Assembly: GCA_963809425.1 (NCBI GenBank)
Contig: CAWEJK010000013.1
Span: 49,359 to 113,358, forward strand
DNA from: Thermoanaerobaculia bacterium
Lineage (GTDB): Bacteria > Acidobacteriota > Thermoanaerobaculia > UBA5066
DNA: 64,000 nucleotides
Direction: 5' to 3'
Shown here: in pieces, positions 33,298 to 62,243 of the stretch
Numbering within the stretch: the stretch's first letter is position 1
Layout of the letters: each line of letters starts with the position of its first letter
The notes under the pieces: generated by a model
The model's input: the letters and a program-made list of their open reading frames with translations, nothing else
Told to the model about the DNA's origin: nothing
The model's database searches: none
Translations under genes and position numbers: made by a program

Positions 33298-36137
33298 CGG
33301 TGAAAACGGCCGTTTAGTGCCCTCGGGAGCCTCGCGGGTAACTGGGTCGAGGGGTCGCCCTGTGGGTTACAAGCCACTCCGCCAGAATGAGTTCCAGTTC
33401 TCGCCTCCCCACTCCAGAGGGGTCTCCCTGGATACCGGCGGACACCGATGGGTCCGCCGATGTGGCCCAAAGTGTGGCCATCGGACGCCCCGTCGGTTCC
33501 CTGCATCTCACGTCCTTGACGGTTCACCGGTCGATCGGCGCCCGCCGTCGCGTCCGGTGCGTCACTTCAAAGAAATGTGTCGGGACTCTCGTCCACTTCC
33601 CGACGTTTTGTCCTAAGACCTCTTCGTGACCGATCTCGAGCTTCGAGCGGCCGTTAGTTCGCTCGGTGTCTTTCGCCCAGGCGAGCTCGAGGCGACGGCG
33701 CGTTACTTCCACCCCGGCGTCCAACTCCCGCCGGGCAGCCCGGGAATGTCGATCTTCCCCGCGCCCCGTCCGTAATCCATGATGGGGGTCAGGTTGGCGC
33801 CGTTCTCCAATGACACCGACCCGGTCACGCCCACGGCCCCCTTCGCGATGCCGGAGTTGCCGCTGGCCGCCACGGTGCTGGTGAGGCTCACATCCTGCAG
33901 TCCGCCCGCATCACTGGCTCGGATGCCGATCATGATTTCGGCGGTGATGCTGGCTCCGGCCGACATCCCCGGCGGCGTCCACCCGTTCTTGCTCTCTCCC
34001 AGACCCTTTCCGCTGCCCAGGTCGATGCCCGCCCCGACGCTGGCGCCGACGCCGATATGGGCGGCGGATTCCTTCTTCACGAAGTTCCGCTCGAACTTGA
34101 ACCGGAGCACTTCGCCGCCGGAGATGGAGAACTTATCGCAGCCCAGCGAGAAACTCAGCGCGCCGGCGCCCAGCTTCAACGGCGGATTCAGCGGGCAATC
34201 CGCCTTGGACTTCTTCAGGTCCGGATCCTTGGCCGTCTTCGGCGGCGCGGGCGGCGGAGGCTCCACGCACTTCATGTCCCTCAGGCTCTTGCCCAGGTTG
34301 GCCAGCGATGAACCCTGTCCGGCGGCCTGCTGATAGAGGCTCAACACCACCAACTCCCGTTGCGCCTCCATCAAGTCATGCAGGGCTGGGACCCAGATCT
34401 GCTCGAAGTAAGGATCGGAGAACGCGTAGAGGTCGCGCGCCGAAACGCGCAGCGAGTCCGAGAATTGCTTCCACACCTTGTACTGCTGTGCGTACAGCAA
34501 CTCCGTCGCGCTCTTGGCCTGCTTGCACGCGAGATAGGCGCGCTCGTTCAACTCCCGCTCCAGGGGATCGATTTCCTTGCGGAGTTGCTGGCCGCAGGCC
34601 TCCACGCAGGGGCCCAGGCAACTGCTTTTGCTGCCACACTTGCCCGGACATCCTTCGACGCAGGCCAGGCTCCGCTCCTGCGCCTTCAGTACCTCGTCCA
34701 TCTGCTTCAGGCTCTTCTCCGCGGCGATGCCTGCCTGCCCGGCCGCCTGTTCCATCGTGGGTTCAATTACCTTGGCGGCGCCTTGCCACTGCTCGGCGGA
34801 CAGCTTGACCGTCTGCGCGACGGTCAGTTCGACAATCTCGCCGAACATGAACACCTGCTTGTCGAAGAGCCGCGGCAGATCGATGGTCCCGTCCGGGTTC
34901 TCCCGTCTGCGCCGCTCGATGGCCATCAGGCGGCCAAACGCCTCCCGTGCCTTCTCGTACGCCGCCGGAACGTGCTCATTGGTAAACTGCAGCGCGTGCT
35001 CGAATGCCTCCTCCGACGCCGCGGTGACCGACGGCGTCTCCGACACCGGCAGCTCAGGAACCGGGCCTGAGTCCGGATCCTTGTCGGGAGCCCCCGCGTC
35101 GTACTTGTCTTCGTGCTGGGTCTGCTCCTTCGCCTTGCGGTAGCCCGCCGCCACCAGGCCCGAGTAGCTCTTGCTCAGCGACCGTCGAAACTGGATCAGC
35201 GCCGTGGCCTGATCGCCCCGGCAACTCGCCAGCAGCCCCAGCCCCGCATAGGAGCCGGCCAGATCAGGCGCGAGCTGCGAGGCCTCCTGAAAGTGTTTCT
35301 GCGCCAGTGGCGCGTTGCCCGCGTTGTAGTAGGCCCAGGCGAGGTTCAACGCGGCCAGCCCCGACGTAGGGTTCATGTAGCGCGCGTACAGCAGCACCTT
35401 CGTGGCGGCCGCCGAGTCCGGAATGGTGTCCAGCGCGACGCCGAGGTTGCCCGCGGCCTGCACGTCAGCCGGGTTCTTCTGGACAGCCAGCGCGCTGGTG
35501 TAGACCGACGCCGATGCGGCGCCGCTCACAAAGAGAGCCCCGGCGATGCCCGACGTGTTGCTCTCCTTGCCAACAGCCGCGTCCACGACGTTCTTGCCGG
35601 GACCGAGTCGCGTGCCATAGGTGCTCACCAAGGACTTGATCAGCGCGGCGAACTCCTGCGGGGTCGGTGCGGCGGTCGCCACTGCTGCCGGCTTGGCGGT
35701 AGGGCAGGGGAGGGACGTCGTCCCTGCCCCGGCGGTGGAGCCGAAGCTCTGGGCGGAGGCGGACAGGCCAGAAAGAAGCGCAAAGGCCACAACGAAGTGG
35801 GTGGCAGGCATGCCTGCATCTTGTGACCAGGATGGCCGAATGACAACCTCCGACGGCTCTGATGGCTGGCCGTATGGCGATACTCAGACGGTCGTGATGA
35901 AGAATAGAGAACTGCGATCCACGAGGAAGAGCGTAGAGTTCTACTCAGGCGACCTCAAGAGATTGTGATCTCGTCCGATGCGATGGCGACGCTCGCTTCG
36001 CTCGGGCCGCGCCGGTAAACCGGCTGACATTAGTCGGGGGTCCGCTCGCGACGCTCGCTGCCCCCGTGCCCCCGGTCGCGCGTTCGAATCGACTCTGCGA
36101 GCAAATCGCGCGCCGGAGCGCTCGAGAATGACTCATA
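33298..36137. mobile_element. putative integrase-less genomic islet bounded by tRNA-Pro 3'-end direct repeats
   Basis: Bracketed by the 44-nt repeats. Contains one large ORF with visibly AT-richer codon usage, plus about 400-bp and 325-bp noncoding flanks. No recombinase is detectable in any frame. Confidence 0.45.
33703..35811 (-). CDS. 702-aa secreted orphan protein (TPR-like N-terminus, Cys-cluster middle, Gly-rich beta-like C-terminus)
   Basis: Long unbroken ORF. Signal peptide MPATHFVVAFALLSGLSASAQS. TPR-like LNLAWAYYNAGNAPLAQKHFQEASQLAP. Cys cluster CVEGCPGKCGSKSSCLGPCVEACG. C-terminus GVGASVGAGIDLGSGKGLG...GVTGSVSLENG. No family recognised. Confidence 0.75.
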   Translation of the reverse strand: MPATHFVVAFALLSGLSASAQSFGSTAGAGTTSLPCPTAKPAAVATAAPTPQEFAALIKSLVSTYGTRLGPGKNVVDAAVGKESNTSGIAGALFVSGAASASVYTSALAVQKNPADVQAAGNLGVALDTIPDSAAATKVLLYARYMNPTSGLAALNLAWAYYNAGNAPLAQKHFQEASQLAPDLAGSYAGLGLLASCRGDQATALIQFRRSLSKSYSGLVAAGYRKAKEQTQHEDKYDAGAPDKDPDSGPVPELPVSETPSVTAASEEAFEHALQFTNEHVPAAYEKAREAFGRLMAIERRRRENPDGTIDLPRLFDKQVFMFGEIVELTVAQTVKLSAEQWQGAAKVIEPTMEQAAGQAGIAAEKSLKQMDEVLKAQERSLACVEGCPGKCGSKSSCLGPCVEACGQQLRKEIDPLERELNERAYLACKQAKSATELLYAQQYKVWKQFSDSLRVSARDLYAFSDPYFEQIWVPALHDLMEAQRELVVLSLYQQAAGQGSSLANLGKSLRDMKCVEPPPPAPPKTAKDPDLKKSKADCPLNPPLKLGAGALSFSLGCDKFSISGGEVLRFKFERNFVKKESAAHIGVGASVGAGIDLGSGKGLGESKNGWTPPGMSAGASITAEIMIGIRASDAGGLQDVSLTSTVAASGNSGIAKGAVGVTGSVSLENGANLTPIMDYGRGAGKIDIPGLPGGSWTPGWK

Positions 36138-36214
36138 TGGTCGGGACGGTGGGATTCGAACCCACGACCCCTTGAACCCCATTCAAGTACGCTACCAGGC
36201 TGCGCCACGTCCCG
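36138..36214 (-). tRNA. tRNA-Pro (anticodon GGG)
   Basis: Manual cloverleaf: acceptor CGGGACG/CGTCCCG, D arm GCGC-AGCCTGGTA-GCGT, anticodon arm CTTGA-ATGGGGT-TCAAG, T arm GTGGG-TTCGAAT-CCCAC, discriminator A, encoded CCA. Confidence 0.9.
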
Positions 36215-36314
36215 ACCGAGGACAGGATCGAAGAGCAGAAGCCCTTCGGGGGTAGCGGTTTATACCATGCCGCGCGCGCCGTCACACGCGCGGGATTCAC
36301 TTGCCGGTGCGGCT

Positions 36315-37040
36315 TTAGTGCCCGGTGTGGCCCGCATGCGGGTCTGCCGCGGCGGGCGCCTCGTGCCCCGCGTGGCCGGAATGGAAAAGGCGGATGCCGA
36401 AGCCGCGGGCGAGCGTGATCAGGGCCACCGCGACGAGGAGCGCGCCCGCGACGCGCGCGACGTTTCGCCGCCAGACCGCCGAGAGCATCGTTCCGAACAT
36501 GGCCGACACGAGGAGCGCCGGGACGGTGCCGAGCGCGACGCCCGCCATCGTGAGCGCGCCCGCGAGCGGCCGGCCGGTCGCGGCCGCGGCGCCGAGTCCG
36601 GCGTAAACGAGCGGGCACGGGAAGAAGCCCATCGCCATCCCGACGACGAGCGGGAAGCCCGCGGGTCGCGTTTCGAGGAGCGGGCGCATCACGGAGGACC
36701 AGACGGGCGCGAGGGCACGCGCCAGCGCGTCGTCGCCGCGCCCGAGCAGGCCGAGGAGGACGAGCCCGGCCGCGAGAAGCGCGAGGCCCGCGACGACTGA
36801 GACCACTCGCCCGCCGAGATCGAGCGCCGCGCTCTTCACGATCGCGCCGCCGAGGGCGCCCGCGAGGGCCCCGAGGAACATGTACGAGGTTGCCTTCCCG
36901 GCCTGCAGGAGGAGCTGGCTGACGACGAGCGCGCCGCTTCGCGCGCCGGCCGAGGTGGCTGCCGCGAATCCCCCGCACATCCCGACGCAGTGGGCGGACG
37001 CCGCGAACGTGAGGGCGGCGGCGACGAGGAGATCGTTCAC
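36315..37040 (-). CDS. TauE/SafE- or DsbD_2-like membrane protein (cbb3 cluster accessory)
   Basis: 241-aa polytopic ORF with HCVGMCGG and FFPCPLVY motifs and a His-rich tail (HSGHAGHEAPAAADPHAGHTGH). Overlaps the ccoI stop by 4 nt. Confidence 0.7.
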   Translation of the reverse strand: MNDLLVAAALTFAASAHCVGMCGGFAAATSAGARSGALVVSQLLLQAGKATSYMFLGALAGALGGAIVKSAALDLGGRVVSVVAGLALLAAGLVLLGLLGRGDDALARALAPVWSSVMRPLLETRPAGFPLVVGMAMGFFPCPLVYAGLGAAAATGRPLAGALTMAGVALGTVPALLVSAMFGTMLSAVWRRNVARVAGALLVAVALITLARGFGIRLFHSGHAGHEAPAAADPHAGHTGH

Positions 37041-39142
37041 GCGGCGGCTCCGGGCAGCGGGTACCGGGTCAGACGCTGCGAGTGGACGACGACGAGGAGG
37101 CTCGACGCAATCATCGCGACCGCCCCGAAGAGCGGATGCAGGAGGCCGCAGACGGCGAGCGTGATCCCGATGCCGTTGTAGAAGAAGGCCCAGAAAAGGT
37201 TGAGGTGCGCGGTCCGGACGGTCCGGTGCGCGAGGTCGATCGTCCAGGGCAGCTTCCTGAGGTCGCCGCCGAGGATCGTGACGTCCGCGACCTCGCGCGC
37301 GAGGTCCGTGCCGGACTCCAGTGTGACGCCCGCCGACGCGACGCCGAGCGCGGGCGCGTCGTTGATCCCGTCGCCGACCATGGCGGGCGACTCCCCCGCC
37401 TGCACCGACGAACGGATCAACTCCAGCTTCCCTTCCGGCGAGAGACCGCCGGTCGCCTTCAGGCCCGGGAAGTCCGCGGCGAAGGACGAGACGCGGGAGG
37501 GAAGATCGCCGGAGAGAACTTCGAGAGAAAGACCGCGGGCCTGGAGCGCGCCCACGGCCTCGGCAGATTCGGGCCGGATCGCGTCGGAGAAGAAGAAGAT
37601 TCCTGCGAAGGTGCCCGCAGCAGAGACGAAGGCCGCGGTCGCGCCTGTGGCCACCCCGGCGGCCGCCACGTGGCCGGGAGCTCCGGCGAAATCCGCCGTT
37701 CCGATCCGAACGACCTCGCCGCCCACGCGCCCTTCCACGCCGAGCCCGGGCCGCGCCCTGAACTCTTCCACCTTCAAAGAAATCTTCTCTTCTCCCCTCT
37801 TCTCCCCTGCCGCCGCGCAGATCGCGCGGCCCACGGGGTGCTCGCTGCCTTCCTCGAGCGCTGCCGCGAGGGCGAGTAGCCGGTCACGGTCGAACGGCGG
37901 AGCAGGGCGCAGGTCCGCGAGCGAGAGAACGCCCGTCGTGAGAGTGCCCGTCTTGTCGAGAAATACGCGCTTCGCCCGCGCGAGAGCCTCGAACACGGCG
38001 CCCGACCGCACGAGGACGCCGGCGGCCGCCGCGCGGCCGACCGCCGCCGTCGAGGCGAGCGGCGTCGCGATGCCGATCGCGCACGGACACGCAATCAGGA
38101 GGACCGAGAGCGCGTTCATGAGGCCTTCGCCCGGGCCCGCGTGGCGCGTCCAGTACGCGAGCGTGAGGAGCGCGACGGCGAGGACGAAGGGCACGAAGGC
38201 GGCGGAGAGACGGTCCACGACGGGCGCGAGCGTGTACCGGCCGGCGCGCGACTCCTCGACGAGCTTCACGAGGCGCGCGACCGTCGTCTCGGGGCCGGTC
38301 CGGCGGGCCTCCACGAGAAGGCTTCCGTCCTGGTTCAACGTGCCCGCGGCCACGTGATCGCCTGGTCCGCGCGCCGCGGGAACGCTCTCGCCCGTTATCT
38401 CGGCTTCGGAGACGCTCGCCGTCCCGTCCACGATCGTGCCGTCCACGGCGATGCGCTCGCCGGGCCGCACGCGGATCACGTCGCCCGGGTGCAATGCATC
38501 CACGCTCACGCGTTCCTCGACGCCGTCGACGACGCGGGACGCCTCCGCGGGAAGCTGACGCACGAGCGCGGAGAGCGCGTCGGTCGTGCGCGCGCGGGAC
38601 GACGCCTCGAGGTAGCGCCCGATCGTCACGAAGAGGAGGATCCCCATCGCCGTGTCGAGGTAGATCGGGCCGCCGCCCGAGAGGACCGACCGGACCGAGA
38701 GCGCGAATGCCGCGACGATGCCGATCACGATGAGCGCGTCCGTGTCGAGCCTCCGGTCCTTCAGGCGCCTGAGGCCCCGGTTCAGGAACGGAAGGCCGAG
38801 GAGAAAGAGCGCCGGGGTCGCGAGCGCGAGGAGCGCCCAGCGCACCCACGCCTCGCCCGCCACCCGGTCCGCCTCGGCGCCGCGCGTGTACAGGACGAAG
38901 CTGCACATCATGACGTTCATCGCGAGGAACGCTCCGACGCCGACCGCCATGAGCAGGCCCGACGCCTGGCCGTGGCCCGAGGCGCCGCCCGTGAGCCGAT
39001 GCGCGAGCGCGCACCCGCCGCAGCAGTAGCAGGGTCCGGACGGGAGCCTCGAGACACCCACGACGCGCAGGCCGCAGTGCGCGCAGAGGGGTAGCGGGGG
39101 CAGAGTCTGGCTGGACGCCGCGGCGGCCCCGATGGCGCTCAA
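37037..39142 (-). CDS. ccoI: heavy-metal (Cu) P1B-type ATPase, CcoI/FixI-like
   Basis: CPC (LIACPCAIGIATP), DKTGTLT, GDGINDAPAL and N-terminal Cys motifs (CAHCG, CCGGC). I favour TTG 39142, which overlaps the stop of the upstream small ORF (TTGA). The ORF remains open up to 39265. Confidence 0.88.
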   Translation of the reverse strand: MSAIGAAAASSQTLPPLPLCAHCGLRVVGVSRLPSGPCYCCGGCALAHRLTGGASGHGQASGLLMAVGVGAFLAMNVMMCSFVLYTRGAEADRVAGEAWVRWALLALATPALFLLGLPFLNRGLRRLKDRRLDTDALIVIGIVAAFALSVRSVLSGGGPIYLDTAMGILLFVTIGRYLEASSRARTTDALSALVRQLPAEASRVVDGVEERVSVDALHPGDVIRVRPGERIAVDGTIVDGTASVSEAEITGESVPAARGPGDHVAAGTLNQDGSLLVEARRTGPETTVARLVKLVEESRAGRYTLAPVVDRLSAAFVPFVLAVALLTLAYWTRHAGPGEGLMNALSVLLIACPCAIGIATPLASTAAVGRAAAAGVLVRSGAVFEALARAKRVFLDKTGTLTTGVLSLADLRPAPPFDRDRLLALAAALEEGSEHPVGRAICAAAGEKRGEEKISLKVEEFRARPGLGVEGRVGGEVVRIGTADFAGAPGHVAAAGVATGATAAFVSAAGTFAGIFFFSDAIRPESAEAVGALQARGLSLEVLSGDLPSRVSSFAADFPGLKATGGLSPEGKLELIRSSVQAGESPAMVGDGINDAPALGVASAGVTLESGTDLAREVADVTILGGDLRKLPWTIDLAHRTVRTAHLNLFWAFFYNGIGITLAVCGLLHPLFGAVAMIASSLLVVVHSQRLTRYPLPGAAA
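37771..37793. repeat. AT-rich intragenic motif copy (ccttcaaagaaatcttctcttct) in ccoI
   Basis: 23-nt exact match to 61355-61377 in an unrelated gene. Encodes EEKISLK. Confidence 0.8.
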
Positions 39143-39324
39143 CGGCCGGGCGCCCGGGTCGCGACGGGCTTGCCCGTCTCGAGGTCGAGCAGGACCGGGT
39201 GCGCCTTCTCCGCGCCGCGCCAGACCCAGACGAGACCGATCAACGCCGCGAGCGACACGATCCACAGGAGCGCGGAGAGGACGCGTCCCTCGGCCGGGAA
39301 GAACGAAGCTTTCGGCGTCTTCAT
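39139..39324 (-). CDS. 61-aa single-TM protein between ccoG and ccoI
   Basis: GGAGG lies just upstream of ATG 39324. The ATG shares one base with the ccoG stop. Hydrophobic helix VLSALLWIVSLAALIGLVWVW. It appears in the ORF track only as the tail of a spurious 1100-aa ORF. Confidence 0.5.
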   Translation of the reverse strand: MKTPKASFFPAEGRVLSALLWIVSLAALIGLVWVWRGAEKAHPVLLDLETGKPVATRAPGR

Positions 39325-40568
39325 CAGCTCTTCCTCCCCGGGACGAACAGCGCGGCCGGGAACGACTCCGTGCGGTCCTTCGCCTTCACGACGAGCGTGA
39401 ACGGCACGACGCTGGATGCCATCTCGGCCCGCGGGATGCGAACCGTGATCGTGAACCTCTTCTCCGTCCCCGCCGGTACGCTCGAATCCCCGAGGCCGTC
39501 CAGCGCGACGCCCTTCGGCAGGCCCTGGGGCGTCACGGCGAGGACGACCGCGTCTCTGCCCTTGTTCGTCGCCCGCAGGAGGAAGCGCGATTCGGCGAAC
39601 TCCGACGTGGCGGCGGCCGCCTCGGTGTAGACGGGCGAGAGCCGGAACGAGACGTCCTGTCGCATCGCGATCGCCGAGACGAGCGCGACGCCGAACCCGA
39701 CCGTGGAGACGGCGACGAGGACGCGCTTGGCGTCCCAATGCCTCAGGCCCGCGCCGCCGAAGTCGAACGCGAGGAGGCCGGGGCGTTTCTTCTTGCCGAG
39801 TATCAGGTTGCAGGCGTCGATGCAGTTCCCGCAGCGCGTGCACTCGATCTGGTAGGGGCCCTCGCGGATGTCGATCTCCATCGGGCAGACCTTTTCGCAG
39901 AGGTTGCACTGGATGCACGGGCCCGCCGCCTCGTCGAATTTCACGTGGAGGCTGCGGCCGTCCTCGAGGATCCCCTGCAGGAGTCCGTACGGGCACACGG
40001 AGCGGCAGAAGCCTTCGCGCAGGAACGCGAAATCGAGGAAGAAGAGGACCGCCGTGATCGCGCCGAGGAGCCCGACCCAGGGAAACACGTCCAAGCGCAC
40101 GAGACGAGCCACGACATCGGGGAGAGGCGCGAAATACGCCATGAGAAGGAGAGAAAAGAGCACCGAGACGGGTAGCAATAGAAGCAGGGCCAAGGCGCGT
40201 GCCGCCGCCCCTCTTCCATTCGCAGAAATCTTCCGTACGACCTTCCGTGCGAGATGGTCGATGTCGTGCGCGTATTCGGAAAAAATCATCTGCGGGCACG
40301 CGTAGGCGCAGTAGACCCGGCCGAGGATGAGCGACGCCGCCCCGACGAGCCACATCGCGAACATGAGCGCGAGCCAGATGAGCGTCCACTCGTCCAGCCA
40401 GATCTCCTTCCGGAAGAAATAGAAGCGGCTGATCGTGAAATCGAAGCGGAAGAGGTCGAAGAGAGGCAGGAGCGCGAATACCGCGAAGAACCCGAGCTGG
40501 ACGAGTCTCCGCTGCCGTGTGAACCGGCCCGTCCAGCCCGGAAGCGACAAACCCCGACCTTTTTCCAT
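39324..40568 (-). CDS. ccoG: cbb3 oxidase accessory protein CcoG/FixG (membrane 4Fe-4S ferredoxin with FixH-like C-terminus)
   Basis: 414-aa ORF with CAYACPQ, CRSVCPYG, CIQCNLCEKVCP and CTRCGNCIDAC motifs plus TM helices. Confidence 0.88.
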   Translation of the reverse strand: MEKGRGLSLPGWTGRFTRQRRLVQLGFFAVFALLPLFDLFRFDFTISRFYFFRKEIWLDEWTLIWLALMFAMWLVGAASLILGRVYCAYACPQMIFSEYAHDIDHLARKVVRKISANGRGAAARALALLLLLPVSVLFSLLLMAYFAPLPDVVARLVRLDVFPWVGLLGAITAVLFFLDFAFLREGFCRSVCPYGLLQGILEDGRSLHVKFDEAAGPCIQCNLCEKVCPMEIDIREGPYQIECTRCGNCIDACNLILGKKKRPGLLAFDFGGAGLRHWDAKRVLVAVSTVGFGVALVSAIAMRQDVSFRLSPVYTEAAAATSEFAESRFLLRATNKGRDAVVLAVTPQGLPKGVALDGLGDSSVPAGTEKRFTITVRIPRAEMASSVVPFTLVVKAKDRTESFPAALFVPGRKS

Positions 40569-40574
40569 CGGGCC

Positions 40575-42500: not shown

Positions 42501-42507
42501 TCGAGCG

Positions 42508-43554: not shown

Positions 43555-43564
43555 GGCGCGCTCC

Positions 43565-50876: not shown

Positions 50877-53264
50877 TCAGCGCCGCCGCCGCGTCTTTCC
50901 ACGCGACGGAGCCGGCGACGGCCGGCGGCCGCGGCCCTTCTGCTGCGCGTGGACGGCCCCGGCGCGCGGGCCGCCGCGCGTCCCCGCGCTCTCGCCCACG
51001 GGCACGAAGTCGAGACCGCGCTTCTCGGCGTCGGCTTTCACGAGCTTCACGCGCAGGCGGTCTCCGAGGCGGTAGACGCGCCCCGTCGAGGAGCCGACGA
51101 GGCGGTGCTCGACGTCCTCGTACCGGTAGAAGTCGTCCCCCAGCGACGAGATCGGCACGAGGCCGTCGACGTAGATGTCCTCGAGCGTGACGAACAGGCC
51201 GAAGCCCACGACCGCCGAGACGTACGCCCAGAACTCCTCGCCCACTCGCGACGAAAGGAACACGAACTTCTTCCAGGCGATCGCCTCGCGCTCGGCCGAC
51301 TCGGCGCGCCGTTCGCGCGACGAGCAGTGCGCCGCCGCCTCGTGGAACCAGCGCGTGCGGCCGTCCGCGTCGTCGGCCGCGGGCGGCCGGCGGATCGCGA
51401 GCCACTCGACGAGCGCGCGGTGGACGAGAAGGTCCGGATACCGCCGGATGGGGGACGTGAAGTGGCAGTAGTGCTTCGCAGCGAGCGCGTAGTGCCCGCG
51501 GCACTCCTCGGAGTAGATGGCCTTCTTCTGGGCCCTGAGGACGAGGTCCGAGACGAGGCGTTCTTCGGGCTTTCCCTGCGCCCGGTCGAGGATCGCCTGA
51601 AACGTCGCCGGGGAGACCTCTTCCTCGTCCTCGGGAATGACGTAGCCGAGCGGGCCGAGCACGACCCGGATGTCCGCGAGGCGGCTCTCGTCCGGCCGGT
51701 CGTGCACGCGGTAGAGGGCCGGCGTCGGGACGAGCTCGAGGTGCTTCGCGACCGCCTCGTTCGCGGCCAGCATGAACTCCTCGATGAGGCGGTGCGCCTC
51801 GTTGCGCACGGCCTTCAGGATCGCGACGACGTCGCCGGTCTCACTGAGGATCACGTCCGCATCCGGCAGGTCGAAATCGAGGGAGCCGCGGGAGACTCTT
51901 TTTGCTCGGAGAAGAGCGCCGGCCCTCTGGGCGGCGCGAAGCATTGCGGCTACGTCCGAAGAGACCGCGGATTTCTTAGAAAGGGGATCAGCCGGCGGCT
52001 CGCTTCGGCCCTCTGCCGTGCTCGATTGCTGCGCTGTAGGTTCGCGCCGGGTCGCCGCCGGTGCGCCGCGCCTGCTGCCCTCCCCCTCTTCACCTTCTAA
52101 GAAATCCCCTACTGCCGTATATGTCAAACGGGCCCGACTCTTGATGAGAGACCTGAAGAACTCGCTCTTCACGGTCTCGCCCTGCCTGTTCAGTGTGAGC
52201 ACCGCGGACAGCGTCCGCCGCTCCTCGTTCGGGCGCAGCGAGCAGAGGTCGTTCGAAAGGCGCTCCGGGAGCATCGCGATCGCGCGGTCGGGGAAGTAGA
52301 CCGACGTGCCGCGTTCGAAAGCCTCGGCATCGAGAGCGCTGCCGATGGGCACGTAGTGCGAGACGTCCGCGATGTGAATCCCGATGCGGAAGCAGCCGTT
52401 CGGAAGCGGTTCGGCCTCGATGGCGTCGTCGAAGTCGCGCGCGGTCTCGCCGTCGATCGTGACGATCGTCCGTCCCGTGAAGTCCGCCCGAAGCTTCCGC
52501 TCGTCGGTCCCGACCGCCCCGTTCGCGGCCTCGGCCTCGGCGATCACGCTCTGCGGGTACGTGCGCGGTATTCCCCACTTGCGGGCCACGACCTCGACGT
52601 CGACACCGGGGTCGCCCTCGAAGCCGATCAGCTCCAGCACCTCGGCCAGGGCGAGCCGGCGGTCGTCGGGGTACGCGGTGATGCGCGCCTCCACGAAGAT
52701 GCCCGTCGGGGCCGACAGGTCCTTGCCGTCCGGCACCGCGAGCCGCGCGTCTATCCGGCGGTCGAACGGCACGATGAACGTGCCCTCCGGGCCGCGCGCG
52801 ATCTTTCCGACGACCGTTTCGCGACGCCTCTGCAGGACCTTCACGACGACGCCCGAGGCACGCGGCGCGAAGCGCGACGCGGGCCGCTTGCCCTTCGGCT
52901 CGACTCTCGGGGCTTCGACGCGCACGAGAACGACGTCACCGTCGAGCGCGCTTGCCACCGCCGTCACCGGCACGTCGGGAACACCCGGCACTCCGGACAG
53001 GAGGAACGCCCGGCCTTCGCCGCGTATCGCGAGCGTGCCCGCCTGATAGTCGGTGAACTCGATGCGCGAGAGCTTCTCGCCCTTGACGCGGACGATCTCG
53101 CCCCGGCGCTCGAGCTCGGCGACGGCTGCGCGAAGCGCATCCTCGCGGGACGGATCGGGATCCGCCCGCAGGACACGATTCGCGACCTCCGAAAACGAGA
53201 GGACGTGCGAGCCCCGAGGCTTCAGCGCCTCGAGGATCGCGTCACGGAGTCGTTGGGGCGTCAT
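50877..53264 (-). CDS. rnr: ribonuclease R, carrying an in-frame ~45-aa low-complexity insertion
   Basis: 795-aa ORF with cold-shock/OB N-terminus, RNB domain (TIDGETARDFDDA, FTSPIRRYPDLLVHR), S1 domain and a basic tail. The insertion is EGEEGEGSRRGAPAATRREPTAQQSSTAEGRSEPPADPLSKKSAVSS. Confidence 0.93.
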   Translation of the reverse strand: MTPQRLRDAILEALKPRGSHVLSFSEVANRVLRADPDPSREDALRAAVAELERRGEIVRVKGEKLSRIEFTDYQAGTLAIRGEGRAFLLSGVPGVPDVPVTAVASALDGDVVLVRVEAPRVEPKGKRPASRFAPRASGVVVKVLQRRRETVVGKIARGPEGTFIVPFDRRIDARLAVPDGKDLSAPTGIFVEARITAYPDDRRLALAEVLELIGFEGDPGVDVEVVARKWGIPRTYPQSVIAEAEAANGAVGTDERKLRADFTGRTIVTIDGETARDFDDAIEAEPLPNGCFRIGIHIADVSHYVPIGSALDAEAFERGTSVYFPDRAIAMLPERLSNDLCSLRPNEERRTLSAVLTLNRQGETVKSEFFRSLIKSRARLTYTAVGDFLEGEEGEGSRRGAPAATRREPTAQQSSTAEGRSEPPADPLSKKSAVSSDVAAMLRAAQRAGALLRAKRVSRGSLDFDLPDADVILSETGDVVAILKAVRNEAHRLIEEFMLAANEAVAKHLELVPTPALYRVHDRPDESRLADIRVVLGPLGYVIPEDEEEVSPATFQAILDRAQGKPEERLVSDLVLRAQKKAIYSEECRGHYALAAKHYCHFTSPIRRYPDLLVHRALVEWLAIRRPPAADDADGRTRWFHEAAAHCSSRERRAESAEREAIAWKKFVFLSSRVGEEFWAYVSAVVGFGLFVTLEDIYVDGLVPISSLGDDFYRYEDVEHRLVGSSTGRVYRLGDRLRVKLVKADAEKRGLDFVPVGESAGTRGGPRAGAVHAQQKGRGRRPSPAPSRGKTRRRR
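51969..52107. mobile_element. MITE-like ~139-bp element with 13-bp terminal inverted repeats inside rnr (in frame)
   Basis: ggatttcttagaa at 51969-51981 is the exact reverse complement of ttctaagaaatcc at 52095-52107. The segment encodes the extra residues that E. coli RNase R (sequence as I recall it) lacks at this position. Confidence 0.4.
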
Positions 53265-55402: not shown

Positions 55403-55567
55403 AGCGCCCTCCCGTGTGTCCTCCTCTTCGGCATTCCCGAAGACAGAACTGTCCTTGAACCTTATGCTGCGCCACGCCCAACGGGACCTGATGCAGTTGC
55501 ATCGAAGGCTCCCGTGGGAGTGGCTCTTCGCGCGGCGAACGGGTCAATGGCCCGTCCGCGCCGCCGA

Positions 55568-56178: not shown

Positions 56179-56207
56179 CGGTTCGGCATCTCCACGAAAA
56201 GTAAGCT

Positions 56208-56253
56208 GCCCAACGATACCGCGTTCACCGGGGGCGCAGCGAGACCGCTGCAA
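56208..56253 (-). repeat. ~46-bp upstream repeat, copy A (contains hairpin GCAGCG-gtct-CGCTGC)
   Basis: gcccaacgataccgcgttcaccgg...gcgcagcgagaccgctgcaa. About 90% identical to copy B. 30-75 nt upstream of ATG 56178. Confidence 0.7.
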
Positions 56254-56327
56254 TGAGTCGATACACATCTGCGGCGGTAGGCCTCAAGGTCGGCCGCGAC
56301 CGCCCTTCGGCTCCGAAGTCCCCGCTG

Positions 56328-56909
56328 TCAGCTCCCTGGCGACTGCGCCTGCGAGAACTTCGATTTCGGCGCCGCCTTCGGCGCGGATGGGCGGTCCACG
56401 CGGTCGGCCGTGCGGCAGTCGGCGCCCTCGTCGAACGGGATGCGCAGGACGACCTCGTCTCCCTGCTTCAGGCCCTGGTACACGGTGGCGTGCGGTGCGA
56501 GCGAGACCTGCCGCTGGCGTCCACTCTTTTCGAGGACGGTGATCGCATTCTTCGTATAGGTCGTCACCGTCCCGCGCACACTTGCGTAGGCCGCTCCGAC
56601 GACCGCCGGGCCGGTCGGACCGCTCGGGGCCGGTGCATACGCGGCGCCGCCGGCTGTTCCGAGATCCGGTTGTGCTCCTCTGGCACGCGCCGTCGCCCTC
56701 GGCGCACCCGAGGTGGCGGCCCGTTCGCCCTGCAGGATCCACCCGTTCCTCGCCTGCTTCATCGCGTCGCTCGGCCGTACGAGCATCTCTTTGTTGCGTT
56801 GCCCGGGCGCGGATGGGACCGTCACGTGCTGCTCTGCGCCCGGAAGACGATCCTGAGCTGCGACGGGCAGGACGAGCGCCACGACGAAGATCAGCGGAAC
56901 GCGCTTCAT
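56328..56909 (-). CDS. hypothetical secreted protein
   Basis: ATG 56909 gives the signal peptide MKRVPLIFVVALVLPVAAQD. No domain recognised. Confidence 0.45.
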   Translation of the reverse strand: MKRVPLIFVVALVLPVAAQDRLPGAEQHVTVPSAPGQRNKEMLVRPSDAMKQARNGWILQGERAATSGAPRATARARGAQPDLGTAGGAAYAPAPSGPTGPAVVGAAYASVRGTVTTYTKNAITVLEKSGRQRQVSLAPHATVYQGLKQGDEVVLRIPFDEGADCRTADRVDRPSAPKAAPKSKFSQAQSPGS

Positions 56910-56943
56910 CGTCCGATTATCGGTCCGGCACGCCACGAGAATG

Positions 56944-56966
56944 CCGGGCGTAGCGAGTCCGCTGCT
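56944..56966 (-). repeat. partial copy C of the upstream hairpin repeat
   Basis: ccgggcgtagcgagtccgctgctgcg shares the cgagtccgctgc core. 35-57 nt upstream of ATG 56909. Confidence 0.5.
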
Positions 56967-57044
56967 GCGCCTTGTTGGGCGGCGCACGTCTATCCAGAGT
57001 CGGGCTCCCTTCTCTCTGTGTCGTCACTCCAAGATGCTTTCCGG

Positions 57045-57620
57045 CTACTTCTTCTGTAGCTGTTTCGGCTTGAGCTCCATGCCGAGTTGCTGCATCCATC
57101 CCAGAACGTCAGCCTCTTCTCTGGCCGCGATGACCTTGCCGTTCTTGATGCGACCCGTCCAAACACCGCCGATCTCAAACGTGTTTCCCGTCGGCAGGAG
57201 TCCCTGGTATTCGCTCTTGTGCGTGCCCCTGACTATGAACCGAGCCACGATTGTGTCGTCGCGGGCGAACATCTCTTTAACATCCCAATGAATATCGGGG
57301 AATCCGGCCCAAAGCAATTTGACGAATCCCGCTTCCTCTTCCCGGTTCAGGGCTTTCGGATTGTTCGACGGAAAATGCCAGCCATACTCGGGAGCGTACA
57401 GCTCCTGATAGATGGCGTCGTTTCGTCTATTCAATTCGTCGAATACGCTTCTGACGAGGGCACGGTTCTGCTCCTCGACCGTTGCTCTGACCCTGTATTT
57501 CTCCAGCTCCGCCACGGTCGCCTTGTCCTTGCAGGCGACCGTAAGCACGGGAGCAGAACGAATGCGGTCAAAGCCACGACCCTGCTCACCTCCCGAATCC
57601 TTCTCATGATCTCCCTCCAT
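57045..57620 (-). CDS. SnoaL-like (ester-cyclase family) lipoprotein; N-terminus disrupted by a 1-nt indel
   Basis: SnoaL-like core (EEQNRALVRSVFDELNRRNDAIYQELYAPEY...DTIVARFIVRGTH). The strong SD GGAGGGAG serves ATG 57607, giving MRRIREVSRVVALTAFVLLP. Adding one base to the GGG run at 57549-57551 restores LLPVLTVAC (a lipobox). Confidence 0.7.
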   Translation of the reverse strand: MEGDHEKDSGGEQGRGFDRIRSAPVLTVACKDKATVAELEKYRVRATVEEQNRALVRSVFDELNRRNDAIYQELYAPEYGWHFPSNNPKALNREEEAGFVKLLWAGFPDIHWDVKEMFARDDTIVARFIVRGTHKSEYQGLLPTGNTFEIGGVWTGRIKNGKVIAAREEADVLGWMQQLGMELKPKQLQKK

Positions 57621-57666
57621 AAAAGACGAAAGGCTGAATTCCTTCTTTCCCGTTCAGACCGAGTCC

Positions 57667-57713
57667 GCCCAACGATACCGCGTTCACCGGCGCGCGCAGC
57701 GAGTCCGCTGCAA
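57667..57713 (-). repeat. ~46-bp upstream repeat, copy B
   Basis: gcccaacgataccgcgttcaccggcgcgcgcagcgagtccgctgcaa. 60-106 nt upstream of ATG 57607. Confidence 0.7.
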
Positions 57714-57872
57714 CGGGGGTTAGACAGCGTTTTCCATATCGACGACGTTACGCCGAATAGCCCTTCATTGGACCCGTTCTGGACCTGTTCGGGTTCAGAA
57801 ACCGCCGTTCAGGCAGACAGAGAACCCCCGCCATTCCGACGTAAACCGTTGATCATTCGTCGGGGGGATGAT

Positions 57873-57961
<89 letters not shown>

Positions 57962-58013
57962 GCGGACCGGCAGGATAAGGCCCATGCCGGGCGTCGTCAA
58001 ATGAGCGACGCCG

Positions 58014-58751
58014 TCAGCGTCGAAAGCCCGCGCGCTCGCGCTCCGCGACGAAGGCATCCACCCGCATCTGATCCCGTTCGGCGATCTCCGTGAACCGGAT
58101 GCCGAAGGCGGGGTGAAAGTGGTCGAGCTCGGCGGTCCGGCGCATGATCCGGCCCTTCGCGTTCAGGGGCTGGGGGTCTTCGGGCAGGAAGAACTCGATC
58201 TCGACGACGCGCCCGATCGCGATCGCGCCCTCGATCTCGAGGAGGAGGCCGTTTCCCGAGACGTTGAGCGTCTTGCCGAGAAGGAGCGCCCCGTCCGGCC
58301 GGACCTCGCGCACGCGCGCCAGCGTGTTCAGCTCCCGGCGTGCCGGAATGAGGGTGAGCCTCTGCGTCTTGTCGAGGAGCTCGGCGGGAGGGAACGGGGC
58401 CAGCAGGAAGTCGTTCACGCCGGGCACGAGGGCCTCTTCCAGGTGAGGCTCCCCCGCCGCCACGACGAGCATCATCGAGACCGTGCGCCACCAGGGCTGC
58501 TCGCGCAGCTTCCGGCAGGCGGCCACGCCTCCGTCCGGCGGAAAGCCGCTGTCCAGGATCACGAGGTCCGGGACCTTCTCGGCGGGGATGCCGAGGAGGT
58601 CGTCCAGCCGCCCGACGGCCACGACCGAATAGCCCGCGGTCTCGAGCGCGCCGGCAGCCCCTCGCAGAAGGCCGGCCGGAGGGCCGGCGAGCGCGACCTT
58701 CTTCTTCGCGAAGAGGCCCGAGCCGCGCGGGAAGGTGCCGGAGCTGTCCAT
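58014..58751 (-). CDS. degenerate receiver domain + PilZ domain protein
   Basis: ATG 58751 overlaps the upstream stop (ATGA). REC-like (DLVILDSGFPPDGG...) but lacking the N-terminal acidic pair. PilZ motifs RRELNTLARV...DGALLLGKTLNVSGNGLLL. Confidence 0.75.
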   Translation of the reverse strand: MDSSGTFPRGSGLFAKKKVALAGPPAGLLRGAAGALETAGYSVVAVGRLDDLLGIPAEKVPDLVILDSGFPPDGGVAACRKLREQPWWRTVSMMLVVAAGEPHLEEALVPGVNDFLLAPFPPAELLDKTQRLTLIPARRELNTLARVREVRPDGALLLGKTLNVSGNGLLLEIEGAIAIGRVVEIEFFLPEDPQPLNAKGRIMRRTAELDHFHPAFGIRFTEIAERDQMRVDAFVAERERAGFRR

Positions 58752-59149
58752 CAGGCGCTCCCCTGCTTGACCGTCACGGCGGCGCGCGCGACCGCGCCGC
58801 CTTCGGTATCGCGGACGACGCCTTCGAACTTCACCGTGTCGCCGAGCCGTCCGGCGATCGCGACGTCGATCGTGAGGACGTCTCCGGCGACGGGCAGCCG
58901 CTGGACCGAGAAATCGGAGATGCCGGCGAGGAAGCCCTTCCGCCCGAGCGCCGCGTCGCCGCCCTGGAGGAGCAGGGCCGACTGCGCGACGAGCTCGGCC
59001 AGCACGGCGGCTGGAAATCCATTCGCACGCACGGCTTCGGCGTCCGCCGTCACGCAAGCCCGCACGCGGCCCTCCGCCGGGCCGGTCCGTTCGACGACGC
59101 GATCGGCGAAGCGGAACGGAAACGCGTGCGGCAGAGCCTGAAAGTCCAC
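58751..59149 (-). CDS. FabZ/FabA-like hotdog-fold dehydratase
   Basis: 132 aa from GTG 59149: VDFQALPHAFPFRFADRVVE... (LPHxxPF motif), then a hotdog-type sequence to the stop at 58751. Confidence 0.65.
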   Translation of the reverse strand: MDFQALPHAFPFRFADRVVERTGPAEGRVRACVTADAEAVRANGFPAAVLAELVAQSALLLQGGDAALGRKGFLAGISDFSVQRLPVAGDVLTIDVAIAGRLGDTVKFEGVVRDTEGGAVARAAVTVKQGSA

Positions 59150-59154
59150 CTCTC

Positions 59155-59418
59155 TCAGGCCGCCTTCTGGCGCACGAACTCGCACAGGGCGCTCACGGAG
59201 GCGAACGCTTTCACGCCCACTTCCTCGTCCTGCACCTTGATTCCGAACTCCTTCTCGACGCCGAGCACGAGCTCGAGGGCGTCGATCGAGTCCAGGCCGA
59301 GGCCGCCGTCCGCGTCCCCGAAAAGCGGCGCGTCGTCGGCGATCGTCGCGGGATCCATTTCGAGCTTGAGCTGCCGAACGATCAGCTCCTTGACTCTCTT
59401 CTTCAGGTCGTCTGACAA
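59155..59418 (-). CDS. acyl carrier protein
   Basis: 87-aa ORF with the phosphopantetheine site LGLDSIDALELV. Confidence 0.9.
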   Translation of the reverse strand: MSDDLKKRVKELIVRQLKLEMDPATIADDAPLFGDADGGLGLDSIDALELVLGVEKEFGIKVQDEEVGVKAFASVSALCEFVRQKAA

Positions 59419-59480
59419 GGACTACTCCCTCCCGGGTTGGCCGGAACCGCGGAGTATACGAGCGCTGGACCCGGCCGGCC

Positions 59481-60257
59481 TCAGCCGACGAATCCACCGT
59501 CGATCCGCACCGTCTGGCCCGTGAGGTACCCCGCGCCGTCCGTGCACAGAAACGAGACGAACGGGGCGATGTCCTCCGGCCTGCCGAAGCGCCGCGCCGG
59601 AACCCGCTTGAGGAAGTCCTCGCGGGCTTCCTTCGTGAGGAACGAGATCATCTCGGTCTCGACGAATCCGGGGGCGACCGCGTTCACGGTGACGCCGAAA
59701 GCCCCGACCTCGGCCGCGAGCGACTTCGTGAAGGCGACGAGAGCGCCCTTCGCGGCGGAGTAGTTCGTCTGCCCGGCGCTCCCCGAGAACGCCGCGAGCG
59801 ACGAGATGTTCACGATGCGGCCCCAGCGGCGTCGCAGCATTCCGCGCATCACGGCCTTCGTCATGCGGTACGTGCCGCCGAGCGCCGTGTCGAGGACGAG
59901 ATTCCAGTTCGCGTCGGGCATGAGCGCGAAGAGGCCGTTCTTCAGGACGGCGGCGTTGTTCACGAGCACGTCCACGCCCTCGCGCTCCTTGTCGAGGCGA
60001 TCGGCGAGGGCGGCGATGTCGGCCGCGGACGTCACGTCCGCCTTGACGGCTTCCCCGCTCCCTCCGGCCGCCCGGATCGCCTCGACGGCGGCCTCCGCCC
60101 CCGATGCGTCCGCGCGGTACGTGAGAACGGCGTGATAGCCGTCGGCGGCGAGGCGCTCGCCGATGGCGCGGCCGATGCCGCGCGATCCGCCGCTCACGAG
60201 CGCGACGCGCTTCCGGGCGGAGGAATCGGAGGAATTCGGAGAATTCGGAGAAGTCAT
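59481..60257 (-). CDS. 3-oxoacyl-ACP reductase (SDR, FabG-like)
   Basis: 258-aa ORF with VSGGSRGIGRAI, NNAAV, a YSAAK catalytic motif and PGFVETEM. Confidence 0.9.
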   Translation of the reverse strand: MTSPNSPNSSDSSARKRVALVSGGSRGIGRAIGERLAADGYHAVLTYRADASGAEAAVEAIRAAGGSGEAVKADVTSAADIAALADRLDKEREGVDVLVNNAAVLKNGLFALMPDANWNLVLDTALGGTYRMTKAVMRGMLRRRWGRIVNISSLAAFSGSAGQTNYSAAKGALVAFTKSLAAEVGAFGVTVNAVAPGFVETEMISFLTKEAREDFLKRVPARRFGRPEDIAPFVSFLCTDGAGYLTGQTVRIDGGFVG

Positions 60258-61320
60258 TTTGTTTCGGACCCGAGCGCATCCCGAGATGCCATGACGGAGT
60301 CGCGCTTCGGATTCTCCTTGAAGGGGAAGAGGGGAGGTGGAGTCAATTCCTTCGCGAAGGCGTCGATGGCCTCCGGATCTTCCAGCGCGCCCTTCGGCAT
60401 CTGTGCGTCGCGAACCGTCCAGCGGACGAGCTTCGTGAGCACGTCCCCAGGCCCCACTTCCGCGAAGCGGCGCAGCCCGGCCTCGCGCATGACCTTCAAC
60501 GTCGGTCCGAAAAGGGATGGAAGAGAGATTTGCTTAGAAAGGACATGGGCGGCCTCCTCGGCGGACTGCACCCGGCGGCCCAACATGGGAGCGAAGAGAG
60601 CCGACCGCGGCTGCGAGACGCTCACACCCCTTTCTAAGAAACTTTGCAGGCGCTCTACAAACTGGTTCAAGGCGAGTCGTGTGCATCGGGATCTTGATCG
60701 AAAGCAAATCTGTCTTCAGCGCCACCGGCCGAAAGGCGTCGACCGCCGACGCGACGAGCGCCCGCTCGCCCGAAAAGACGAACTGCGCGGCCGCGTTCTC
60801 GGTCGCGATCGCGAGGCGCGCGCGGTCGGGCGTCAGCGCGCGGAGCGTCGCCTCCACCGCCGGCCGCCCGAGCCCGATGACGTACGCCATCCCGCCATCC
60901 AGCTCCCCCCGCCGCGATGCTTCGGTCATGAGGCGCTCGGCCTCGAGGAGGACGTCGAGCGCGGCCCACGTCTCGAGCGAGCCGACCGCGACGAACGCGG
61001 CGTACGTCCCGAGGCTGTAGCCGACGGCGGCCGCGGGCTCGAGCCGATGGATGCGCCGAAGCGTTTCGAGCGCGGCGAGAGAGGTCGCAAAGACGCCGAC
61101 CTGGGCGGGCAGGTCGTCGTGAAGCGACGAATTGCCCTCTCCAAAGAACGTATCGGCGAGGCGAACTCCCGACCGCACGGAGATTTCTTCGAATAGAGAG
61201 GACGCGAACTCGTATCTGCGGGCGAGAGCCTCGCCCATCCCCGCCTTCTCGGACAACTGACCCGGAAAAAGCGCCGCGAATGAAGACGATCGCGGCTCGC
61301 CGAACGACGAGAGTCGTCAC
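60254..61320 (-). pseudogene. malonyl-CoA:ACP transacylase (FabD-like), two homopolymer frameshifts
   Basis: GTG 61320 overlaps the deacetylase stop (GTGA). Removing one base from the A5 run at 61266-61270 gives AAIVFIRGAFPGQLSEKAGMG. GYSLGTYAAF (GxSxG). Removing one base from the A3 run at 60659-60661 joins ...MHTTRLEPV to VERLQSFLERG... Confidence 0.8.
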
Positions 61321-62243
61321 GCCGCGACCCCCGACTTCTCTTCTTCTTTCTTCCCCTTCAAAGAAATCTTCTCTTCTTCTTTCTCTTTCTTTCTTTCCAA
61401 AGAAATCCCCTCTTCGGCCCTCGCCGACGAAATCGGGGCGAACGTCCATCGCTTCAGGAACCGCGCCCAACGGCCCTCGGTCCGCGTTCGCCCCGCGAAG
61501 TGGACGAGACTCTGAACGGGCGACAGCCCGGGCATCGCGGGGTGGTCCGGGTCGAGCTCCCAGGGATGCGCGTAGAGGACCGGCGGAGCCCCGGCGGCGA
61601 GAGACCGCTCGATCGCCGCCGCGACGCGGCTCTCGCGCGTCAGGCGAGCGCAGACGCCGCCGCCCCAGATCGCGCGAAAGCCGAAGAACGTGCCCATGAG
61701 CGGCGGGACTTCCAGAATCGGGCCCGATCCGGTTTCGAGCGTCACGGGGCGCGTCGGATTCGACGGGTCCCCGACCGGCGGCGCCGTCGTGAGCGAGGAG
61801 TCGAGCGTGAAGCGTTCCTCGGCGAGAACCGAGAACGCGGCGTTGTCGGCTCGAAGCATCGACCACTCCGGGGCGCGGAAGGACGTCACGGGCTTCCCGA
61901 CGATCTCCTGAAGCGTGTCGCGGCTCTTCCGGAGGTCCTCCCGAAACTCGGGCAGCGTCATCTCGAACACCCGGCGGTGGACGTCGCCGTGGCAGCCGAC
62001 CTCGTGCCCGGCGTCGGCGATACGCCGCACGAGCGACGGGTTCTGCCGCGCGATCCAGCCGAGGGTGAAGAACGTCGCCGTGGAGCCGGTCCCGTCGAGG
62101 AGCGCGAGCAGGCGCTCGACGCCGGCGTGAACGCGCTTTCCCCGGCCGGCCCACGTGGCCGGGTCCGCGTAGAGCGGATTCCCGCAGACGTGGAACCATT
62201 CCTCCACGTCGACGGTCAGGATCGGGACAACGCTCGCGCTCAC
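61317..62243 (-). CDS. polysaccharide deacetylase (DUF3473 / PEP-CTERM-locus subtype) with odd Lys/Glu-rich tail
   Basis: 308-aa ORF with LTVDVEEWFH, TFFTLGWIA and HGDVHRRV motifs. The tail ISLERKKEKEEEKISLKGKKEEEKS is encoded by the AT-rich repeat motif. Confidence 0.85.
   Translation of the reverse strand: MSASVVPILTVDVEEWFHVCGNPLYADPATWAGRGKRVHAGVERLLALLDGTGSTATFFTLGWIARQNPSLVRRIADAGHEVGCHGDVHRRVFEMTLPEFREDLRKSRDTLQEIVGKPVTSFRAPEWSMLRADNAAFSVLAEERFTLDSSLTTAPPVGDPSNPTRPVTLETGSGPILEVPPLMGTFFGFRAIWGGGVCARLTRESRVAAAIERSLAAGAPPVLYAHPWELDPDHPAMPGLSPVQSLVHFAGRTRTEGRWARFLKRWTFAPISSARAEEGISLERKKEKEEEKISLKGKKEEEKSGVAA
61355..61415. repeat. two direct copies of the AT-rich motif in the tail of the deacetylase gene
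   Basis: ccttcaaagaaatcttctcttct (61355-61377) and tccaaagaaatcccctcttc (61396-61415), within a polypyrimidine tract. Confidence 0.8.

Follow-up and report, generated by a model that had tools for sequence, protein, structure and literature searches.

Why does a short AT-rich word recur inside unrelated genes of a GC-rich bacterial chromosome? The question is raised by the 64-kb window analysed here (the whole stretch, C13:49359-113358 of genome G000, a Thermoanaerobaculia genome of 3.52 Mb in 13 contigs with 69% G+C), in which the G+C content is 62-72%. A preliminary description of the window claimed that the word recurs beyond chance, that a 12-mer occurs three times, and that the copies in a ccoI-like gene and a deacetylase gene share an exact 23-mer translated as EEKISLK at both places. 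These claims were borne out. The 12-mer CTTCAAAGAAAT is exact at 33565, 37772 and 61356 and has a one-mismatch copy at 52094 (4 matches in the window, 0.04 expected), the 23-mer CCTTCAAAGAAATCTTCTCTTCT is exact at 37771 and 61355 with EEKISLK as its translation in both genes, and a genome-wide family stands behind them. We refer to each copy as an arm. The answer that we tentatively prefer, drawn from sequence comparison, is that the arms may be an independently recognised and selected DNA signal acting as head-to-head pairs, most simply in double-stranded DNA.

An oriented motif with hundreds of copies

Alignment of 172 CTTC[AT]AAGAA copies gave the oriented, asymmetric consensus cccTcTTCACCTTCTAAGAAATCTTCTCTTC, whose core CCTTCTAAGAAAT lies within about 25-45 nt that are pyrimidine-only on one strand. 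G is nearly absent from the consensus strand from about -10 to +30, and conservation is highest in the core and fades outward on both sides, with no sharp outer terminus. The TTTCT-W-AGAAA palindrome proposed earlier has to be replaced by this asymmetric form, the core plus a G-free pyrimidine flank. The outer flanks are complementary GA and CT tracts rather than direct repeats.

The genome was searched with a 26-nt position weight matrix (PWM; cut-off at least 18 bits), which found 444 arms in the 3.52 Mb compared with 61 in the reversed-sequence control. Under an order-3 Markov model of the whole genome, TTCTAAGAAA occurs 79 times (0.2 expected, about 400-fold) and CCTTCTAAGA 81 times (0.66 expected), and words of the motif rank among the most over-represented 10-mers of the genome. 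The preliminary description had allowed that the word might be no more frequent than a background model predicts; its genome-wide frequency is hundreds-fold above background.

Exact sharing between arms is also frequent: 90 pairs of arms share at least 23 nt, while 2 are expected from independent positions, and the maximum is 30 nt. Because such sharing is common genome-wide, the 23-mer of the window is unremarkable; it is typical of the subfamily AAGAAATCTTCTCTTC and indicates no special kinship of its two loci. In another subfamily, of nine arms (for example window 60635-60660; others on C1, C2, C5, C9, C11 and C12), the GA-rich outer flank is replaced by GG(G/A)A.ACGGTCTGCAAAGTTTCTTAGAAGG, and the sequences further upstream are mutually unrelated.

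Arms form head-to-head pairs around unique DNA

Among adjacent arms no more than 400 bp apart, 123 pairs were inward-facing, 2 outward-facing and 32 tandem. On the plus strand an inward pair reads as a GA-rich tract, ATTTCTTAGAAGG, a filler, CCTTCTAAGAAAT and a CT-rich tract, with a centre-to-centre spacing of 34-290 bp (mode about 73) and no helical phasing at 10-11 bp among the genome's pairs. The rule extends to many arms that appear single, since 94 of 198 have a degenerate partner (at least 8 bits) on the inner side and in the correct orientation, compared with 8 in the outer-side control; with these partners added, at least 80% of the arms are paired. At larger distances there were only 8 inward arm pairs (0.4-3 kb apart), with ordinary genes inside, and no autonomous element with arm termini was found.

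No filler was found to have a second copy in the genome (BLAST of the 123 fillers gave 12 marginal hits of 19-56 nt), and fillers, intergenic or intragenic alike, are no more structured than their shuffles (median z about 0). Every pair can fold into a long arm-arm stem. No arm-arm covariation was detected at any variable position, the two arms of a pair being no more alike than arms across pairs in shuffled pairings. In view of this, there is no sign that selection acts on the stem.

The placement of the pairs was read against gene calls from our own crude codon-model caller (3,027 genes, 88% coding). Of the 123 pairs, 60 fall within a single predicted gene and 42 lie wholly between genes, an intergenic enrichment of about threefold with no preference for a type of gap (27 co-directional, 6 convergent, 8 divergent and 1 at a contig end). 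The intergenic pairs lie a median of 57 nt from gene 3' ends and 121 nt from 5' ends, and often fill short gaps. Within genes, arm positions are evenly spread, and unpaired arms are found in sense (48) and antisense (66) orientation. Arm orientation shows no link with GC skew or gene-strand bias. Along the genome the sites are spread approximately at random (median gap 7.2 kb, coefficient of variation 1.18).

The centre of the arm avoids stop codons

All six reading frames host arms, and two of them would create a stop codon at the core (TAG on the purine strand, TAA on the pyrimidine strand). In these two frames the centre is A or G in 37/37 and 28/30 copies, respectively, while T is the centre of 62-84% of copies in the remaining four frames and of 74% of intergenic copies. 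The CAAAG variant is the stop-avoiding form of the arm, and the ccoI and deacetylase copies read KISLK with CAAAG because both lie in the TAG frame. Of the two bases that the preliminary description had allowed at the centre, T is therefore the canonical one, and the A-centred copies of the window are variants forced by the frame. A role of the arms as suppliers of stop codons was rejected, the core giving the gene's real stop in only 14 arms.

Copies in the window and their orthologues

The window was rescored with a PWM built from the genome's own copies (positions given are arm centres), which revealed the following sites.

33565..33576, plus strand: weak or doubtful arm CTTCAAAGAAAT, the exact 12-mer; 13.1 bits, in the gap between the open reading frames (ORFs) 31740-33317 (plus) and 33703-35811 (minus).
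37762..37808, plus strand: single strong arm with a CT-rich outer flank, read as GEKRGEEKISLKVEEF; 34.0 bits, centre 37776, in a ccoI-like P1B-type ATPase gene, 37037-39265 (minus).
40208..40233, plus strand: weak arm CCCCTCTTCCATTCGCAGAAATCTTC; 16.2 bits, centre 40222, in a FixG-like ferredoxin gene, 39324-40568 (minus), the gene being assigned by Pfam.
51967..52109, centres 51978 (minus) and 52098 (plus): head-to-head pair in the RNase R gene, 50877-53264 (minus); 21.8 and 40.0 bits, 120 bp apart.
60308..60333, minus strand: arm in the C-terminal tail of fabD (PLFPFKENP); 20.2 bits, centre 60319, no close partner.
60525..60646, centres 60536 (minus) and 60635 (plus): head-to-head pair in fabD; 19.4 and 24.0 bits, 99 bp apart.
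61179..61410, left arm 61190 (minus), tandem right arms 61360 and 61399 (plus): pair spanning the fabD start and the deacetylase end; 13.7, 37.9 and 16.6 bits.

The copies listed in the preliminary description in ccoI, the RNase R gene, fabD and the deacetylase gene are thus upheld by the PWM, which adds the sites at 40222 (16 bits) and 60319 (20 bits). The copy at 33565 is doubtful (13 bits); it has neither an inner-side partner nor a pyrimidine flank, and may be a chance match or a decayed arm. The ccoI-like arm at 37776 has A at its centre, and TAG is thereby avoided. The RNase R pair encloses a unique GC-rich filler that is translated as the linker DFLEG...PLSKKS, and the tandem right arms at 61360 and 61399 are translated as the deacetylase C-terminal tail ...EEGISLERKKEKEEEKISLKGKKEEEK.

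Orthologues were compared for these genes. In RNase R, arms occur at the homologous place in 17 species of the same genus, with arm centres 24-120 nt apart and one or both arms lost in some species. The segment measures 49-91 aa within the genus, with up to 38 extra residues between the arms, compared with 52-53 aa and no motif in the outgroups (12 genomes, drawn from two further families of this order). In place of the outgroup codons CGC CTC CTC GAG, the left arm has GAT TTC TTA GAA (ARLLE becoming GDFLE), a substitution overlay on native codons.

The fabD pair at 60536/60635 is conserved in 20 genus genomes, its spacing constant except in two genomes with 13 additional bases. It overlays the native codons of LQSFLERG ... 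HVLSKQISL with no change of length, the length and sequence here being what we take to be native by comparison with E. coli FabD. Across 20 species, few columns of the gene are as well conserved as those of the arms (column conservation of 0.92-0.96 in the left arm). Furthermore, third codon positions are more conserved in the arms than elsewhere in the gene (0.83 and 0.67, P-value = 7e-4, which is approximate and overstates independence because the species are related). A shift of the fabD reading frame was noticed at GTTTG (window 60650-60662, minus strand), where ...MHTTRLEPV is followed by VERLQSFLERG... in the next frame; 18 of 19 genus orthologues are one base shorter here and one is a base longer. 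The frame change is either an assembly error in this metagenome-assembled genome (MAG) or a real frameshift.

The two true orthologues of the ccoI-like ATPase (in G013 and G009) retain the arm with GA-tracts of different length, so that the segment measures 37, 39 or 45 aa compared with 34 aa in paralogues, the GA-tract adding 3-11 residues. For the pair spanning the deacetylase end and the fabD start, genus orthologues retain the left arm and have 0-3 tandem right arms. These comparisons of RNase R, fabD, ccoI and deacetylase orthologues showed that arms are born and lost by point substitution, tandem duplication and low-complexity slippage, and that many are then held across the depth of the genus. 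It had been foreseen that the codons of the motif might simply encode amino acids conserved in distant orthologues; the distant orthologues encode similar residues by different, GC-rich codons. Among the explanations first proposed, a site tolerated within ORFs fits best, in view of the six frames, the stop-avoiding centres, the conservation at third positions and the overlay on native codons.

Two further features of the window may be recorded. Positions 1-33000 contain no arm above 9 bits, and twelve arms lie in the second half. Two tRNA genes are found on the minus strand at 36141-36214 and 57876-57961 (Rfam RF00005, 61 and 59 bits).

The motif is confined to one genus

The exact 11-mer CCTTCTAAGAA is present in 51-201 copies, a fourfold range, in 9/9 genomes of one GTDB genus, and motif numbers are equal on both strands. 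In 112 genomes from 59 further genera of the class, four of them in the same family, it has 0-2 copies, the level of the control; sister genera of the family have 0-1. A scan of prokaryotes with one genome per species obtained multiple hits only in MAGs titled Thermoanaerobaculia or Acidobacteriota, mostly from soil; AT-rich genomes gave single chance hits. The range of the motif is one genus of uncultured soil Acidobacteria (Thermoanaerobaculia) with at least 26 species. Among the viral contigs of IMG/VR at least 115 hits were obtained, and phages were rejected as carriers, each of the 80 contigs listed having one chance-level match. A literature search on repeats and motifs in Thermoanaerobaculia and on the 9-mer found nothing relevant.

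When 400-kb samples from two sister genera and from another family of the order were examined by k-mer enrichment, no substitute motif emerged, while the motif was plainly visible in a same-sized sample of G000 used as control. The sample of G146 gave no enriched word. The enriched word of G072 was rejected as a dialect, being the CXXCH codon string of a multihaem cytochrome cluster (G072:C1:1040001-1060000), where the strings TGCCACAAG occur at least 25 times in 5 kb and yield a spurious 10-mer. Likewise rejected was an ordinary repeat of about 80 nt in G022, from the other family, which is conserved over its whole length. This palindromic repeat (...CCTCGCCTCGGTTACTTCGGCGAGAC...) is dispersed through G022:C1:1000001-1400000, with 15 copies in the 400 kb, including a tandem triplet 172 bp apart.

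Candidate readers and known signals

Genes that might read the arms, and known families of signals, were screened in G000 and its relatives. Y1/RAYT (REP-associated tyrosine transposase, PF01797; REP, repetitive extragenic palindrome) has 0 matches in G000 and is present in 3/21 genus genomes. It was rejected as reader, since its three loci are not flanked by arms and 18/21 genus genomes are without the gene. The tyrosine recombinases of G000 are XerC, XerD and an integron integrase (G000:C13:564160-565198, TIGR02249, 467 bits), the last lying about 1 kb from a strong arm cluster. The locus of the integrase, outside the window, adjoins etfB-like and rve genes near the contig end. The integrase exceeds the cut-off in 39/61 genomes of the family, including motif-free genera, and is missing in G013, the genome richest in arms; this distribution ruled it out as reader. 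Neither a serine recombinase nor TnpB was found in G000, whose transposase-type genes are three rve genes and one DDE fragment. The rve genes on C6 and C7 have no adjoining arm, and the arms nearest to the third, on C13, are about 4.6 kb away. ComEC is present in G000 (PF03772, 169 bits) and would make DNA uptake possible; it is widespread and hence uninformative.

No Rfam family overlaps the arms, and neither promoter-like nor terminator-like matches were found at them, nor any excess of terminator-like sites. An intrinsic terminator was rejected given the unstructured fillers, the lack of terminator-like sites at arms and the intragenic position of half of the pairs, and a promoter because the -35/-10 geometry is absent and pairs also occur in convergent gaps and inside genes. 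No replichore or gene-strand polarity of the kind shown by Chi or KOPS (FtsK-orienting polar sequences) was found. The 3' end of 16S rRNA with the start of the spacer (C7, minus strand) is GGATCACCTCCTTTCTAAGGGATCT, in which TCACCT...TCTAAG..ATCT recalls the pyrimidine arm. Because of this resemblance, the purine arm is Shine-Dalgarno-like (AGAAGGTGA). With four bases skipped, the 16S 3' end resembles the pyrimidine arm TTCACCTTCTAAGAAATCT; upstream of the 16S gene no corresponding arm occurs. A mimic of the 16S 3' end or processing stem was rejected (6 bits only, no purine arm in the 16S leader), and the resemblance is treated as chance.

Alternative explanations

The pairs might work as RNA or single-stranded DNA hairpins resembling REPs or REPINs (REP doublets forming hairpins), the 20-40 bp arm stem in transcripts protecting mRNA 3' ends, directing processing (by RNase III, for instance) or causing termination. 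The long stem available in every pair, which is the same from either strand, would agree with this, as would the position of intergenic pairs closer to 3' than to 5' ends, their filling of short gaps and the outer GA-rich and CT-rich flanks that prolong the complementarity. We nevertheless consider a hairpin unlikely, because the arms do not co-vary at any variable position, the fillers are unstructured, half of the pairs lie in ORFs, including fabD and RNase R, and some lie in divergent promoter regions. Furthermore, the sequence conservation far exceeds what a stem requires, and terminator-like and Rfam signals are lacking. A signal for self-recognition or uptake, comparable to the DNA uptake sequences (DUS) and uptake signal sequences (USS), would let biased uptake or conversion spread the arm through the gene pool of the genus. 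Restriction to one genus resembles DUS dialects, and the equal strand numbers, the ORF copies arisen by substitution with frame-dependent variants, the presence of ComEC, the copy number varying within the genus and the long exact words shared within subfamilies are all consistent with it. Such a signal needs no partner, however, which leaves the strict head-to-head pairing at 34-290 bp unexplained; known uptake sequences have a density of about 1 per kb, and the arms, at about 1 per 8 kb, are some ten times sparser. ComEC, being widespread, does not discriminate, and on balance uptake appears quite improbable.

The preliminary description also suggested footprints of a small mobile element, and the arms could be terminal inverted repeats of a decayed or domesticated miniature transposon with diverged interiors, or its solo footprints. 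The inverted-repeat architecture, the tandem duplication of arms (as in the deacetylase tail) and the fourfold range of copy number point that way, as do the up to 38 extra residues between the arms of RNase R, with a filler length that depends on the species, and the 3-11 residues added by the GA-tract of ccoI. The suggestion fared poorly all the same, and we regard a transposon as very unlikely. Fillers have no second genomic copy, the longest word shared by arms is 30 nt (none reaching 35 bases), and conservation fades gradually with no sharp terminus. In fabD (both arms of the pair) and RNase R (left arm) the motif takes the place of native codons without altering the length, and about 20 species have arms at orthologous positions. 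Nor was a cognate transposase found, Y1/RAYT being confined to 3/21 genus genomes and unflanked, the rve genes on C6 and C7 having no adjoining arm, and the arms nearest to that on C13 lying about 4.6 kb away. A recombination or insertion target was also among the explanations first proposed; sites of site-specific recombination, whether invertons or attC-like sites served by the integron integrase or some other recombinase, would be a still more distant prospect. In favour of this, short segments are flanked by inverted sites, the genome carries an integron integrase gene about 1 kb from a strong cluster of arms, and attC likewise has conserved ends around a variable centre. The consensus order of attC is RYYYAAC...GTTRRRY, but the core polarity here, CTTAG...CTAAG, is the reverse. 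The integrase is present in motif-free genera and missing from the arm-richest G013, the sites are dispersed and form no cassette arrays, and a modal spacing of only 73 bp leaves very little room for synapsis. Serine recombinases were not found, and orthologous fillers retain their orientation.

A possible paired signal read in double-stranded DNA

We return to the tentatively preferred explanation, a selected DNA signal read arm by arm in double-stranded DNA. It is supported by the lack of dependence on transcription direction, the lack of covariation, the unstructured filler and the conservation at silent sites. A sequence-specific factor, most probably a putative DNA-binding protein, would recognise each arm singly. 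The unit is a pair of head-to-head arms bracketing 30-290 bp of arbitrary DNA, and it presents the same face to an approach from either side and looks identical on both strands regardless of gene orientation. Arms appear to be retained by selection on DNA and, in ORFs, are accommodated through conservative recoding, rare codons and the stop-avoiding centre. The strict head-to-head rule, together with the loose and unphased spacing, suggests a two-sided polar element rather than a rigid protein bridge, and our best guess is that binding might establish a two-sided boundary or architectural mark on the chromosome.

Several observations weigh against this explanation. No reader protein was identified among the candidates screened, and the lack of helical phasing argues against a rigid protein bridge between the arms. 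The fourfold range of copy number within the genus (51-201) and the excess of exact 23-30-mer sharing (90 compared with 2) would also fit a selfish or copying process rather than site-by-site selection. The same is true of the tandem duplication of arms; we therefore keep a selfish component in play. In addition, a role at the RNA level is possible because a pair yields the same RNA on both strands.

A bolder version, which we consider doubtful, is that about 200 two-sided polar boundary elements form a genus-wide punctuation system read by a dedicated putative protein. This protein might act as a barrier to a DNA-tracking machine or mark where it loads, or else label self DNA. If so, a punctuation word would be engraved in essential genes despite rare codons and altered residues. 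Uptake sequences are the main known case of selection on DNA words within coding sequence. The present word is longer, paired and strictly polar, is kept across a genus, at silent sites and in essential genes, and is not explained by any transposase, recombinase or RNA family. Since the motif ends at the border of the genus and the sister genera sampled show no substitute, a comparison of gene content should lead to the reader, the candidates being genes common to all members of the genus and absent from sister genera. Its identity would reveal a new chromosome-organising or self-marking system, or a new route by which short sequences spread. A practical consequence is that gene calls, codon statistics and linker lengths in these MAGs are distorted by the motif.

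Comparison with known systems

Like integron attC sites, the pairs have two short conserved inverted boxes around a variable centre, and the genome has an integron integrase gene; the core boxes stand in the opposite order, and the arms are dispersed genome-wide, lie within genes and do not co-occur with the integrase across the family. Rickettsia palindromic elements (RPEs) and intragenic miniature inverted-repeat transposable elements are comparable in that a repeat is translated in frame within housekeeping genes as a tolerated surface or linker peptide, as in the RNase R linker and the deacetylase tail. However, RPEs are whole insertions of 100-150 bp with conserved interiors and always lengthen the protein, whereas the copies described here have nothing in common but the arms, enclose unique or native sequence and in several cases leave the length unchanged.

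REPs, bacterial interspersed mosaic elements and the REPIN-RAYT system share with the arms a conserved unit of 20-35 nt dispersed as inverted doublets in hundreds of copies, often just after genes and probably bound by protein. In those systems the units are extragenic, each is palindromic, the linkers are short and conserved, and a RAYT gene stands alongside. The arms, in contrast, are half intragenic, have unique linkers of 30-290 bp and show no covariation, and 18/21 genomes have no Y1/RAYT gene. The DUS of Neisseriaceae and the USS of Pasteurellaceae resemble the motif in being short, oriented, taxon-specific words that are over-represented hundreds-fold, equal on both strands, placed in coding DNA by substitution in tolerant frames and conserved at orthologous sites. 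Compared with them, the arms are about ten times sparser, at least 80% stand in head-to-head pairs 34-290 bp apart around unique DNA, and the word is longer (25-45 nt), with a purine/pyrimidine asymmetry between its strands.

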